64,000 bases of DNA from Methanobacteriota archaeon (GTDB lineage Archaea; Thermoplasmatota; Thermoplasmata; SG8-5; JAGLSY01): positions 1 through 64,000 of the forward strand of contig JAEHCO010000007.1 of assembly GCA_020697715.1 (NCBI GenBank), in the 5' to 3' direction. The position numbers and the translations under genes were made by a program. The notes below the pieces were generated by a model, which was given only the letters and a program-made list of their open reading frames with translations, was not told the DNA's origin and did not search any database. The first letter of the stretch is position 1. Each line of letters opens with the position of its first letter. Shown in pieces: positions 10,131-14,169 of this stretch.

Positions 10131-10580
10131 CTACTTATCAAGAACCGGGAGCCTGGCTTCCTCTTTCACTATGTTCAGAACTATCTGGGTATATGTCCTT
10201 TCAACATATTCCATTCCAGATATCCATTTGATGAACTTGTTCAATTCGCGGCGATTGTGGAACCTGGCTATGATCATGGAATCCCATTCCCCAGTTATAT
10301 CATAGACATTGACAACATTGGAGTTCTTCGATATCTTATCCTGGACGGATATCATCTTACCTCGAGATATCCGCATTCCGATGACAGCCAGCAGATCGAA
10401 GCCGAACTTCTGCGGATCAAGAACTGGCGCATAGCCCTTTATGATCTCGTCCTCTTCCATTTTCCGAACACGGTTGGCCACAGTGCTCATGGAAACACCC
10501 AGCTCTTTCGCCATCTGCCTGAAGCTCTTTCTGGCATTCTCATTCATAGACGCGATTATTTTGAGATCAAGGTCATCCAT
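10131..10580 (-). CDS. Lrp/AsnC family transcriptional regulator, divergent from glnA
   Basis: MDDLDLKII..NARKSFRQMAKELGVSMSTVANRVRKME HTH and ITGEWD RAM-domain motif. Confidence 0.93.
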   Translation of the reverse strand: MDDLDLKIIASMNENARKSFRQMAKELGVSMSTVANRVRKMEEDEIIKGYAPVLDPQKFGFDLLAVIGMRISRGKMISVQDKISKNSNVVNVYDITGEWDSMIIARFHNRRELNKFIKWISGMEYVERTYTQIVLNIVKEEARLPVLDK

Positions 10581-10765
10581 GCAGGATAATAGGCATTAAC
10601 ATTTATTAAATTAACTGTATATTTCACAAAATAAACATTCATTTGACCAATATTATCAGAATATATTAGTCAAACAGATGAATTGTTATCAATATATTAT
10701 AAGTATCATTATTTCATGTTAGGGCAATCGACCCCGTGTATCTCAGGGTCAATAGAGGTATGACA

Positions 10766-12091
10766 ATGCACAAGAACATTTCAGAGATATTGGAAGAAGC
10801 TAAAAAAGTAAAATTAGAGAATGTCCGGGTCCAGTTCACGGACATACTGGGCAATCCAAAGAATATCGTGATACCCGAATGGAGACTGGAGGAAGCATTG
10901 GATGAAGGAATTGCCTTCGACGCATCTTCCATTGAAGGGTATGCGACGATTGAAGAATCCGACTTGATAGCGAAGCCGGATCTTGGCTCATGGCAGATAC
11001 TACCAGAATCATTGGAGAAGCGAGTGACAGCCAGACTCAACTGCGACATCTACCGCACGAATGGGGATAGATACGCTGGAGATCCAAAATACGTGCTCGA
11101 AAAAGCGATGAAAAAAGCGAGTGACATGGGCTATTCTGCGAATTTCGGGCCAGAATGTGAATTTTTCCTCCTGAAGATGGTGGATGGAAAGCCAACTACC
11201 ATTCCAAATGACACAGGGGGTTACTTCGATCTGTCACCCCGTGATCTAGCCGAGAATGTCAGAGGCGATATTTCGGCTCTGCTACAGGAAATGGGATTTC
11301 AAGTTTACACCACGCACCACGAGGTGGCGGCTGGCCAGCATGAGATCAACTTCCAATATTCCGACCCGCTGACGACAGCAGACAGAGTGGTCACACTGAA
11401 ATATGTATCAAAGATTATCTCACTTCGAAATGATCTTCACGCAACCTTCATGCCAAAGCCGATACATGGCGAGAATGGAACTGGCATGCACACCCACATG
11501 TCCTTGGTCGGCAAGGATGGAAATGCCTTCAATGATCCAGATGATGAAAATGGACTGAGCGAGCTGGCCTATAATTATATCGCCGGCCTTCTTCAATACT
11601 CCAAGGAGATGAATCCCATCCTCAATTCCTGGGTCAATTCCTTCAAAAGACTGGTGCCGGGTTATGAAGCTCCTTGTTACATCGCCTGGGCGACACAGAA
11701 CCGTTCCGCTCTTATTCGAATTCCTGCCAAGCGTGGCGGAGGAACCAGGATCGAGCTGAGAAATCCAGATCCTGCTGGAAGTCCGTATCTGCAATTCGCG
11801 GTCATGCTGGCTGCGGGTCTCAAAGGAATTGAGAACAATATGCAGCCACCAGAGAGGGTGGAGAAAGACATCTACAAGCTGTCACAGACCGAGAGGGCGA
11901 AATACAATATCGAATCACTGCCAGATAACCTTGGGCATTCGCTCACATTCATGGAAAAGAGCGAGCTGATGCTGGAGACACTGGGGCCGCATATCTTCAA
12001 TAATTTCCTGTATCTGAAGAGGAAGGAATGGGACGAATACCGAACACAGGTTACGGACTGGGAGATCGACCAGTATCTCAGTATATTGTAA
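10766..12091 (+). CDS. glnA: Glutamine synthetase type I
   Basis: FDASSIEG, HHEVAAGQHEI, FMPKP..GENGTGMHTH, KRLVPGYEAP, NRSALIRIP, RIELRNPD motifs; SD GAGGT before ATG 10766 (10760 also possible). Confidence 0.96.
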   Translation: MHKNISEILEEAKKVKLENVRVQFTDILGNPKNIVIPEWRLEEALDEGIAFDASSIEGYATIEESDLIAKPDLGSWQILPESLEKRVTARLNCDIYRTNGDRYAGDPKYVLEKAMKKASDMGYSANFGPECEFFLLKMVDGKPTTIPNDTGGYFDLSPRDLAENVRGDISALLQEMGFQVYTTHHEVAAGQHEINFQYSDPLTTADRVVTLKYVSKIISLRNDLHATFMPKPIHGENGTGMHTHMSLVGKDGNAFNDPDDENGLSELAYNYIAGLLQYSKEMNPILNSWVNSFKRLVPGYEAPCYIAWATQNRSALIRIPAKRGGGTRIELRNPDPAGSPYLQFAVMLAAGLKGIENNMQPPERVEKDIYKLSQTERAKYNIESLPDNLGHSLTFMEKSELMLETLGPHIFNNFLYLKRKEWDEYRTQVTDWEIDQYLSIL

Positions 12092-12163: not shown

Positions 12164-13063
12164 TTATTCCTCATACAATCCAGTCGACAGATACTTCTCC
12201 CCACCATCTGGGAAAAGGGTAAGCACAATTCCCTTACCCTTCGCATTCTCCAACTGGCTGGCTTCCTTCAAAGCTGCGTGTAGAGCCGCTCCCGAGCTTA
12301 TACCTGCCAGTATTCCCTCGGCCTTTGCAAGTACCCTAGCGGTACTGAAGGCCTCCTCCTCGTTCACATATACCGTACGATCTATGAACTGGTTACTGTA
12401 AATATCTGGAACAGCCTGAACATCCAGGTTCTTGAGACCCTGGAGGGTTCCATTTGGTTTGGGTTGAACTCCCACTACTTTGATATCTGGATAAGCTTCC
12501 TTCAGACGCTTTGAGAGGCCAGTTATCGTGCCCCCGGTCCCCACACCGGCAACTAGAATATCGACATGTGGAAAGTCCGCGATTATCTCATCCGCTGTGT
12601 GGAGATAATGCGCCAGAGTATTGCACTCGTTCTTGTACTGATCCAGCATGACCATACCTTCTTCCCTAACAGCTTTTTCCGCGCTCTGGATGCTGCCGTC
12701 CACTCCATCTTCTTTGGGTGTCAGGCGCAATTCCGCACCCAAAGCTTTGAGCATCTTAATTCTCTCAAGGCTCATGTTTTCCGGCATATAGAGAACGAGA
12801 TGATATCCGCGCACCGCAGCTATCATCGCCAGCGCGATCCCCGTATTGCCACTGGTCGCCTCCACAATTGAGGAATCTGGGTTTAACAGCCCATCACGCT
12901 CCGCACACCGGACCATCTCCAGGGCCGCCCGATCCTTCACCGAGCCAGAAGGGTTGAAATCTTCCAGTTTGGCATATACCTCGACATTGCCATAATGCAT
13001 ATTGTTCAATCTCACAACGGGCGTCGCACCCACAAGATCCAGCATACTATCTACTACAACCAT
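12164..13063 (-). CDS. cysK: Cysteine synthase (O-acetylserine sulfhydrylase, PLP fold II, CysK/CysM type)
   Basis: AKLEDFNPSGSVKDR (PLP Lys), EATSGNTG, GVGTGGT, GISSGAA, PDGGEKYLST. Confidence 0.92.
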   Translation of the reverse strand: MVVVDSMLDLVGATPVVRLNNMHYGNVEVYAKLEDFNPSGSVKDRAALEMVRCAERDGLLNPDSSIVEATSGNTGIALAMIAAVRGYHLVLYMPENMSLERIKMLKALGAELRLTPKEDGVDGSIQSAEKAVREEGMVMLDQYKNECNTLAHYLHTADEIIADFPHVDILVAGVGTGGTITGLSKRLKEAYPDIKVVGVQPKPNGTLQGLKNLDVQAVPDIYSNQFIDRTVYVNEEEAFSTARVLAKAEGILAGISSGAALHAALKEASQLENAKGKGIVLTLFPDGGEKYLSTGLYEE

Positions 13064-13097
13064 AAATCACACTCTCCCAAAAATCAATGAAGGAGGT

Positions 13098-13169
13098 TTA
13101 CTCAAGACAACAGCCAGCGCACTCGCTCTTCACGTTAAAATCCTGCCTGAAGATGATTATGCTGGTCAT
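13098..13169 (-). CDS. Putative 23-aa Cys-rich leader peptide MTSIIIFRQDFNVKSECAGCCLE upstream of cysK
   Basis: ATG 13169 lies 31 nt downstream of the start of TATATATAA (13200-13192), consistent with a leaderless start; three Cys codons in the last 7 codons; stop 35 nt before cysK ATG. Below the ORF-track cutoff. Confidence 0.7.
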   Translation of the reverse strand: MTSIIIFRQDFNVKSECAGCCLE

Positions 13170-13288
13170 TGAACTGCCAAATAGAAAATTGTTATATATA
13201 GTTAACCCCCATTTTTTCTATATGGCTTAAAAGAAAAAAGTGGAGGCAAAGCTATACTGAAAATATTTATGCTCAAAAATCGACCCGA

Positions 13289-13546
13289 TCAAACGATATC
13301 TGGCTCACATGAGCCATCATCAAATAATTCGGTCTCCAACCTGAAGGTGACATTCATGCCCTTGAGGAGTTCATGCACCTTGTCAGCAAAGAAAACAGCC
13401 TCGTTCACAGTGGCACTACTATCCCACTCATAAACGAAATCATAGTTGCCAGTGGTTGGCTTGAATCCGATATTGCTAAGGCGGTCGACTACTTCCGAAG
13501 GTTTTGCGCCCTCCGTGCTGAACATCATGGTCATGTAGGTTTTCAT
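13289..13546 (-). CDS. Small hypothetical protein (~85 aa, alpha/beta)
   Basis: Clean ORF MKTYMTMMFSTEGAKPSEVVDRL..GNYDFVYEW, divergent from the gamma-CA gene; function not recognised. Confidence 0.7.
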   Translation of the reverse strand: MKTYMTMMFSTEGAKPSEVVDRLSNIGFKPTTGNYDFVYEWDSSATVNEAVFFADKVHELLKGMNVTFRLETELFDDGSCEPDIV

Positions 13547-13656
13547 GGCTATCAATATGGATATGTATGCTGGGATTATTAAACCTTTTCATTTGGATGT
13601 CATCTTTTGTTATACACATTATGGAGAAAATTACATATTTGCGCCCCGAATACCCG

Positions 13657-14169
13657 ATGACCATGAAGCCAAAGATCCATGAATCATGTTATATCGATCC
13701 AGCAGCCGTCATCATTGGTGATGTGGAGATAGCAGAGGGATGCTCCGTATACGCCGGAGCAGTTATCCGAGCCGATCTAGCTCCTGTCAGAATAGGCCCA
13801 GGCTCCAATGTGCAGGAGAACTGTGTGATACATGTTTCCAGGAATTATCCAGTCACTATTGGTAAAGACGTATCCCTGGGACACTGCTGTGTCGTTCATG
13901 GGGTCACCATCCATGATGATACAATAATTGGAATGAACTCGGTTGTCATGAATGGCTCAGAGATAGGTGCTGGCTCTATAATCGGAGGCAATGCTTTCGT
14001 GAAGGAGGGTATGAAGATCCCGGAAGGCAGCCTGGTATTGGGAGTCCCGGCGAAGATCATCAAATCAGGAGATGCCAGCTTACTTGAGCAGACACGCTTT
14101 AATGCGGAGACCTACCACATGCTGAGAGATGAGCATCGAGCTGGAAAGCATGAGCGACATCAAGAATAA
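13657..14169 (+). CDS. Gamma-carbonic anhydrase family (hexapeptide repeat, YrdA/PaaY-like) protein
   Basis: PKIHESCYIDPAAVIIGDV, IRAD, NVQENCVIH, GH.CVVHG Zn-binding His residues, GVPAKII; start approximate. Confidence 0.92.
   Translation: MTMKPKIHESCYIDPAAVIIGDVEIAEGCSVYAGAVIRADLAPVRIGPGSNVQENCVIHVSRNYPVTIGKDVSLGHCCVVHGVTIHDDTIIGMNSVVMNGSEIGAGSIIGGNAFVKEGMKIPEGSLVLGVPAKIIKSGDASLLEQTRFNAETYHMLRDEHRAGKHERHQE

Follow-up and report, generated by a model that had tools for sequence, protein, structure and literature searches.

The window analyzed here, the first 64,000 nucleotides (nt) of archaeal contig JAEHCO010000007.1, carries on its minus strand a cysteine synthase gene (cysK) and, immediately 5′ of it, a 23-codon open reading frame (ORF) whose peptide ends C-A-G-C-C-L-E-stop. 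This leader ORF is probably a ribosome-read sensor of Cys-tRNA charging that controls cysK. An earlier note on this DNA had proposed such a cysteine-sensing leader, with a stalled ribosome either covering a sequence complementary to the Shine-Dalgarno (SD) element of cysK or suppressing termination at a U tract. The conserved frame and its Cys codon pair, the spacing of the promoter and the recurrence of comparable ORFs before cysK in other archaea all support the sensor, but the mechanism as then worded is only partly supported.

As we picture the switch, the cysK transcript would start at, or a few bases from, the ATG of the leader ORF, and ribosomes would translate that ORF as a message whose sole constrained content is the pair of Cys codons near its end. 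When charged tRNA-Cys is scarce, ribosomes would pause at these codons; when it is plentiful they would complete the ORF and dissociate. How often the cysK ribosome-binding site is usable would then depend on how the leader's 3′ end is occupied by ribosomes, that site lying 20-30 nt further on and being able, in prediction, to pair with ACCUCCU directly after the leader stop and so be masked. The output of cysK would in this way track cysteine supply. The polarity, in which starvation switches cysK on, is taken from the polycysteine short ORFs (sORFs) of mycobacteria, and by the same analogy control would be exerted at translation initiation, not transcription termination.

If the proposal is correct, it would describe the first class of amino-acid-sensing attenuators in the archaeal domain, and one that must work with archaeal leaderless initiation and without terminators of the bacterial type. 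With a conserved Cys-codon leader recurring in front of cysK, metabolite sensing by the translating ribosome would be shown for Archaea as well, in an element as small as about 110 nt. It also flags a class of unannotated mini-genes overlooked by gene callers, and it raises the question of how the signal is transferred on a leaderless mRNA with hairpin-free termination and a weak SD-masking structure.

Architecture and conservation of the leader

The TATA box, the 23-codon ORF, the ACCTCCT and GGGAG motifs and the cysK start all lie on the minus strand where the earlier note had placed them. The TATA box TATATATAA of the putative leader promoter occupies 13200-13192. In the ORF listing the leader ORF runs from 13169 to 13098, with its ATG at 13169-13167 and a TAA stop at 13100-13098, and encodes MTSIIIFRQDFNVKSECAGCCLE. 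The tandem TGT TGT codons 20 and 21 (13112-13107), the proposed sensing codons, follow a third Cys codon at position 17 (13121-13119). Directly 3′ of the stop stands ACCTCCT (13097-13091), the ACCUCCU of the transcript. The genome's own 16S gene (contig C30) ends in GGATCACCTCCT, and the motif therefore equals the last 7 nt of the anti-SD, as had been claimed. This anti-SD arm is separated by a 12-nt spacer, the loop of the predicted hairpin, from the SD region of cysK (GGGAGAGU / GGGAGAGT; 13078-13071, with GGGAG at 13078-13074), and the two segments can pair over 7 bp with one bulge. The spacer ends in the T5 run that had been noted between them, although its position is 13083-13079 and not 13084-13080.

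The proposed regulated gene, cysK (13063-12164, 299 aa), begins on the same strand 34 nt after the leader stop. No terminator-like site was found in a scan of 13064-13169, and across 12800-13600 the scan gave a single such site, 13316-13301, which falls within the 3′ end of the 88-aa gene upstream. Leader ORF and cysK would therefore lie on one transcript, with the leader ORF as its first cistron. The GGGAG begins at -15 relative to the cysK start, the same position at which SD motifs are enriched across the genome: among 994 ATG-start genes GGAGG, with its enriched position at -15..-11, occurs there in 108 and GGGAG in 26, and SD elements are heavily used in this organism (assembly of 2.12 Mb in 34 contigs, 94% complete, 45% G+C). 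CCTCC at -60..-12 is found before 25 of the 994.

Forty-one related genomes were searched, of which three belong to the same genus and encode CysK proteins 92, 86 and 74% identical to that of the window; when metagenomes were scanned with CysK, 80 loci came back, none more than 53% identical and none from the genus. Reads from two DNA runs yielded only a 166-nt contig belonging to a near-identical strain, along with unrelated pieces. The frame and the tandem Cys codons, features whose loss in relatives had been named beforehand as grounds for giving up the idea, are retained in all four genus genomes. The peptides, MTSIIIFRQDFNVKSECAGCCLE in the window (G000), MTNSTLFNKIFVMKSESAGCCLE in G003, MTDSWQFSQIFEMNSQCAGCCIE in G001 and MTDSWLFPRIFEMNSQCAGCCFE in G002, are each specified by an ATG, 23 codons and TAA, and insertions and deletions, absent from the frame itself, are seen in its flanks, both in the upstream spacer and in the loop that follows the stop. 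The TGTTGT of codons 20-21 is identical in all four. The block GCT-GGN-TGT-TGT encodes an unchanged A-G-C-C, with synonymous changes (GGC/GGA, TGC/TGT) in the conserved block, and the C-terminus follows the consensus [CS]AGCC[LIF]E, or S-x-[CS]-A-G-C-C-[LIF]-E when its conserved Ser is included. Codon 17 reads TGC, TCC (Ser), TGT and TGT across the genus. The N-terminal half is divergent, positions 3-16 being nearly free except for Phe7 and Ser15, which are the same in all four. Such a pattern is that of a frame that is read and a product of little importance, as in leader peptides.

The promoter is conserved along with the frame. A TATA-like A/T-rich 8-mer is centered 26.5-28.5 nt 5′ of the sORF ATG in each of the four genomes. 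In archaea a spacing of this size between TATA box and start puts the transcription start at or next to the ATG, so the transcript is predicted to be leaderless. A few bases 5′ of the TATA box there is a conserved G run (13210-13206 in the window; TGGGGG, TGGGGG, TCGGGA and TGGGGGG in the four genomes), which may be part of a B recognition element (BRE) or a regulator site acting on the same promoter. The anti-SD arm is likewise present in all four, with ACUUCCU in one genome, where the pair is retained as G-U.

Leaders of this kind are rare in the genome itself. In a crude annotation comprising 1500 non-overlapping long ORFs and 1804 ATG-started mini-ORFs of 8-45 codons within 300 nt upstream of them, only four of the 1500 genes, cysK among them, are preceded by a mini-ORF whose last five residues include CC. 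The other CC-ended ORFs, such as MAISICCQ before a 594-aa Cys-rich gene on contig C29, were set aside because they lack both a correctly spaced TATA box and any connection with cysteine. A scan of the same genome for runs of His, Trp or Gln in upstream mini-ORFs gave nothing convincing.

Recurrence before cysK in other archaea

The strongest evidence for the proposed sensor is, in our assessment, that poly-Cys leaders recur before cysK outside the genus. With its own family counted, the archaeal lineages that have them number at least four, comprising two families of Thermoplasmata, another Thermoplasmatota group and a small-genome lineage. In a second family of the same class (f12), a cysK-type gene is preceded by MVDLTEPIAYTAVCCC, MGPLSLSIHCKAYCC or MAANFVETACRALCCC in three genomes of two genera, with the sORF stop about 20 nt 5′ of the gene; the other cysK paralogues of these genomes have no such ORF. 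Three of the nine cysK-bearing genomes among 31 searched from the small-genome lineage carry MTAKVCCC, MNTMDLCCCC or MKLNLCCCC upstream of cysK, and METKLCCCC stands before cysK in two Thermoplasmatota metagenome-assembled genomes (MAGs), in one of which the stop is lost and the frame continues for six codons. The peptides of the separate lineages are 8-23 residues long and have nothing in common but the terminal Cys run. All ten of the poly-Cys sORFs that were measured (from the genus, f12 and the small-genome lineage) have a TATA-like 8-mer centered at -26.5 to -30.5. The METKLCCCC ORFs (L345 and L352) stand outside these ten, and their nearest A/T-rich boxes, located by eye, are centered about 17 and about 31 nt 5′ of the ATG.

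A strand comparison points the same way. Among 305 distinct 200-nt cysK upstream regions, bacterial ones included, start-to-stop frames of 4-45 codons with CC or three Cys in the last eight residues number 20 on the sense strand and one on the antisense strand; a stricter definition, which admits only ATG starts and requires CC among the final four residues or CCC among the final six, leaves 13 and zero. Five of the 20 sense cases (L193, L208, L222, L251 and L335) are regarded as chance singletons. The ORF MGKGDVRIVPSFSSHYCCCT at L193/L148 is not kept in four genus relatives and sits 5′ of a likely TATA box, and those at L208, L222, L251 and L335 are likewise singletons without support. Three genomes flagged as unpublished entered the tallies of a single search only, and no conclusion here depends on them. 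Taking the lineages together, we put at about even the chance that ribosome-read poly-Cys leader ORFs are a general, repeatedly invented archaeal device by which tRNA-Cys charging sets the expression of cysK.

Genome-wide matches to the motif TGYTGYTGYTRR were also inspected. The 30 matching loci retrieved from five other genomes contain 23 stop-ended sites, and four of these sites gave ATG-started peptides, two of which are cysK leaders and two of which lie inside long ORFs. In the 1.1-Mb genome G428 the motif has 55 matches against seven for the reversed control. This excess was considered as a possible regulon and rejected: the matches that were fetched sit within long ORFs or overlap them, out of frame or on the opposite strand (L276, for example, is inside a signal-peptide coding stretch), and the excess is probably an effect of codon usage.

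Other arrangements were seen 5′ of archaeal cysK genes. In order-level relatives (family f4; L006, L008, L011 and others) cysK starts 4-8 nt after the stop of pheS (NF003210, 540 bits), with no leader ORF, and the two genes probably share a transcript. Two genomes of the small-genome lineage have a tRNA-Cys(GCA) gene, found with ARAGORN, directly 5′ of cysK on the same strand (L265, 2447-2518, minus; L266, 2483-2555, minus), the order in L265 being MKLNLCCCC mini-ORF, tRNA-Cys, cysK. In a haloalkaliphile-type Thermoplasmata genus (L191-L195), a conserved block about 110 nt 5′ of cysK, TTAAATAA..AGAGGGG..GAAAGTG..TAAA..CTAATAACAG..TGTTAGTAA, looks structured, and no ORF is conserved in it. The block could represent a distinct kind of RNA element or else a promoter together with a 5′ untranslated region (UTR).

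Predicted RNA structure and competing explanations

The leader's minimum-energy fold contains a 7-bp helix with one bulge between ACCUCCU and GGGAG(A)GU, and a short outer helix that reaches the cysK AUG. The RNAalifold consensus of the four genus leaders recovers the same anti-SD/SD hairpin, with six pairs invariant and one C-to-U change that retains a G-U pair, and predicts in addition a long hairpin across the ORF, closed by pairing between AUGAC at its 5′ end and GUUGU in the Cys codons. The inner helix of this structure, hairpin P1 (13156-13124, with arms at 13156-13149 and 13131-13124; alignment columns 14-21 with 39-46), has two of its eight pairs changed on both sides (C-G to A-U; G-C to C-G or U-G) and is weakest in the window's own copy, where three pairs are broken. 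With four sequences, the covariation is suggestive at best. A scan of the locus against Rfam 15 gave as its only hit a mir-84 match at chance level (E 3.7), with 13.6 bits where the gathering score is 60. The effect of a paused ribosome on SD accessibility was modeled by constrained folding, in which the ribosome footprint is forced to be single-stranded and the mean unpaired probability of the window spanning the SD and start codon is read out. With the Cys codons occupied, accessibility rises from 0.35 to 0.39-0.44 in the copy under study, and in other lineages the SD is clearly opened in L216 (0.20 to 0.57-0.69) and L262 (0.23 to 0.51-0.66).

Several observations weigh against the proposed sensor or its SD switch. 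The anti-SD/SD pairing is predicted and conserved in both the minimum-energy and the consensus folds, but the leader is no more stable than its shuffles (z 0.55 and 0.64). No compensatory change occurs in hairpin P2, and for the consensus structure as a whole, which has 94.8% of its cells paired, the covariation score observed is attained by 15 of 500 column shuffles; because only four genus genomes exist in the collections searched, the covariation is thin. A ribosome covers about -15 to +12 nt around its A site. With Cys codon 20 or 21 in the A site it would end at the stop and merely abut ACCUCCU, so that the idea of a stalled ribosome covering the anti-SD is not borne out by footprint geometry. 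Nor does the modeled stall open the SD to any extent in the other three genus genomes (0.27 to 0.27-0.28, 0.30 to 0.30 and 0.35 to 0.24), and it is not clearly opened in L214, L215 or L263 of the other lineages. In L263 a textbook four-segment arrangement is seen by eye, in which the stretch after the ORF could pair in two ways, with the beginning of the ORF or with the 5′ side of a strong hairpin that sequesters the SD. In sum, the thermodynamic support for an anti-SD switch is equivocal. The Ser at codon 17 in one genus member leaves only two Cys codons constant. Most Thermoplasmata cysK genes examined, including those of a sister genus of the same family, have no such ORF, 40 further regions from a range of families and genera of the class yielded no credible case, and the strand counts overstate the case, as related genomes are not independent.

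The identity of the enzyme bears on the logic of the switch. The protein matches Pfam PALP (2.3e-70) and reaches 352 bits with the NCBIfam model TIGR01136 (cysKM; cut-off 344.15), and it is the only strong cysK-type match in its genome. The genome encodes a cysteinyl-tRNA synthetase (CysRS; 522 bits, cut-off 340) and has no SepRS match above cut-off, and the charging of tRNA-Cys should therefore depend on free cysteine. A further point on the adverse side is that no serine acetyltransferase (cysE, TIGR01172) exceeds the cut-off in the 94%-complete genome (best 37.9 bits against 210.65), which leaves the substrate of the enzyme, and even its physiological direction, unsettled; the substrate may not be O-acetylserine.

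The main rival to a starvation-induced cysK, though we consider it unlikely, keeps the same sensor and reverses its polarity by translational coupling: the ribosome that reaches the leader stop would open the SD hairpin, and starvation would shut cysK down, a sensible arrangement if the enzyme removes cysteine or acts in another direction. The anti-SD arm starts at the very next base after the stop, and a ribosome modeled at the stop codon raises SD accessibility to 0.50-0.54 in three of the four genus genomes, where occupancy of the Cys codons changes little; this result counts against the polarity we prefer. The lack of a cysE above cut-off also fits the reversed scheme, the classical O-acetylserine route not being evident. 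Less of a cysteine-synthase-family enzyme at cysteine shortage would, however, be the opposite of every leader-peptide system studied, the mycobacterial one included; in lineages where CCC directly precedes the stop, a ribosome on the last Cys codon would itself extend past the stop; and the protein stands above the cysKM cut-off while reaching only 75 bits with a cysteine desulfhydrase model whose own cut-off is 600. That the ORF instead encodes a working small protein, merely co-transcribed with cysK and acting in trans as a Cys-rich metal- or sulfur-binding micro-peptide or a CysK partner, is improbable. The protein-level conservation of the C-terminal motif would suit it, and small archaeal proteins with clustered Cys are described, such as sORF_06 of Methanosarcina mazei (PMC11456600). 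Against it, the 16 N-terminal residues are nearly unconstrained in the genus and the peptide matches no Pfam family, one genome has lost the stop and changed its tail while keeping the CCCC run, and what is shared across lineages, in peptides of very different length, is only the presence of terminal Cys codons at or near the stop, which suits a codon sensor and gives no hint of a peptide that folds or binds.

We give about as little weight to the explanation that the ORF is untranslated and that an RNA or DNA element is conserved instead, whether 5′ UTR structure, a site bound by protein or an alternative promoter. Conservation is almost base for base over the final third of the ORF and the 35 nt beyond it, the hairpin in the ORF shows its two compensatory pairs, and the G run 5′ of the TATA box is conserved. 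Yet unrelated sequences in three other lineages also have ATG frames that end in two to four Cys codons at the same place and TATA spacing, the excess of sense over antisense frames is left unexplained, variation in the conserved block falls at third codon positions (TGC/TGT, GGC/GGA), and the Rfam scan produced nothing beyond chance. Least probable of all is a transcription attenuator in which the oligo-U is an intrinsic or factor-dependent archaeal terminator whose use is set by the distance between ribosome and polymerase. Archaeal polymerases do stop at oligo-T without a hairpin, T5 stands at 13083-13079, and the small-genome lineage has oligo-T runs too, in its longer leaders. G003, however, has only T4 (the other three genus genomes have T5), the intergenic DNA is A/T-rich in any case, and the leader scan found no terminator-like site. 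A stall would moreover uncouple the ribosome from the polymerase, so that termination should rise under starvation, which is the wrong direction; the relief of U-tract termination by stalling that the earlier note had offered as an alternative is weak on the same grounds. The mycobacterial case was shown not to act by termination, as its preprint reports (bioRxiv 10.1101/834739).

A frameshift version was tried and rejected. Ribosomes at hungry Cys codons would shift to the +1 frame, which in the window runs to a TGA one codon 5′ of the cysK ATG, terminate at UGA-UUU-AUG and reinitiate. The spacer of G003 is one base shorter, so the relation between the frames is not conserved.

Relation to known leader peptides, and neighboring genes

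Amino-acid control by leader peptides is a textbook bacterial mechanism. The closest parallel to the cysK leader is found in mycobacteria, where leaderless polycysteine sORFs (Ms5788A and related loci) make downstream cys genes cysteine-responsive (Canestrari et al., bioRxiv 10.1101/834739). As that preprint describes them, the Cys tract of Ms5788A pairs with the SD region in an "exceptionally stable" duplex, regulation requires translation of the sORF and acts on translation and not on termination, and sORFs of this type arose independently at several loci. The archaeal leader shares with them a short ORF as presumed first cistron, consecutive 3′ Cys codons directly 5′ of a cysteine-biosynthesis gene, predicted leaderless initiation (the TATA spacing fits throughout the genus), a downstream SD that may be masked by predicted pairing, a proposed readout through pausing at low tRNA-Cys charging, and comparable ORFs with separate origins at several loci. 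It differs in being archaeal, with a TATA promoter and archaeal ribosomes and initiation factors; in having only two constant Cys codons, followed by two further codons; and in placing the SD complement after the stop and not in the Cys tract, within a predicted structure that is weak. We regard it as an analogue and not a homologue of the mycobacterial sORFs, because its host is an archaeon and the peptides share no sequence beyond the Cys codons, even from one archaeal lineage to the next.

Cys leader peptides have also been predicted in Actinobacteria, before cys operons of Mycobacterium and Propionibacterium acnes and before cbs of Bifidobacterium longum (Seliverstov et al., PMC1262725). 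Those predictions too came from comparative genomics, and they too have runs of Cys codons near the stop, 5′ of cys genes, and no recognizable terminator hairpin; they are bacterial, with a Rho-dependent mechanism proposed by their authors, and both domain and promoter type differ from the present case. On every point that sequence can show, the archaeal element resembles the actinobacterial Cys leaders. Like trpL and hisL of enterobacteria, it is a leader ORF rich in codons for the end product and would use ribosome position as the signal, but neither the terminator scan nor the folds gave a pair of terminator and antiterminator hairpins with a U run. Archaeal termination is independent of terminator hairpins. 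In the ermCL and cat leaders, as summarized in the mycobacterial preprint (bioRxiv 10.1101/834739), the arrest of a ribosome within a short upstream ORF rearranges a hairpin in which the SD of the following gene is concealed. The proposed switch would resemble this, except that arrest there depends on an antibiotic and a specific nascent peptide and here would follow from the lack of one charged tRNA.

The earlier note knew of no established archaeal case, and the open full-text literature, the scope of our search to the exclusion of subscription-only papers, likewise contains no archaeal amino-acid leader peptide that we could find. Ribosome profiling in Haloferax and Methanosarcina (the latter PMC11456600) has revealed sORFs in 5′ UTRs which the passages concerned call "reminiscent" of leader peptides, or possible upstream ORFs, and take no further. 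The cysK leader is probably an archaeal variant of a type of switch so far described only in bacteria.

Cys-rich mini-ORFs were also seen upstream of bacterial cysK genes (L080/L147, L083, L326 and L353). Two related deltaproteobacterial MAGs have MRKCCRVAVLLCCRYH and MMAVLPCCRLNCST before cysK, a Moraniibacteriota MAG has MKENLNKKIQKSCCCLETNISRTFCC, and Desulfosporosinus hippei has MSLKKGYCTSFLIPACCRCVLY. These non-archaeal cases suggest that the device is commoner in bacteria than the actinobacterial literature shows.

Upstream of the leader, the 88-aa ORF (13555-13289, minus) adjoins cysK in all four genus genomes, ends ..CEPDIV and has no match in Pfam or NCBIfam; the terminator-like site mentioned above corresponds to a small G+C-rich hairpin (13316-13301) within its final codons, and the DNA after its stop has T-rich runs. 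Beyond it, on the plus strand, a hexapeptide protein (13567-14169) has as its best models those of gamma carbonic anhydrase and PaaY type, below their cut-offs. On the other side, a glutamine synthetase gene (10736-12091, plus) converges on the 3′ end of cysK, and an Lrp/AsnC-type regulator (10131-10580, minus) is divergent from it.

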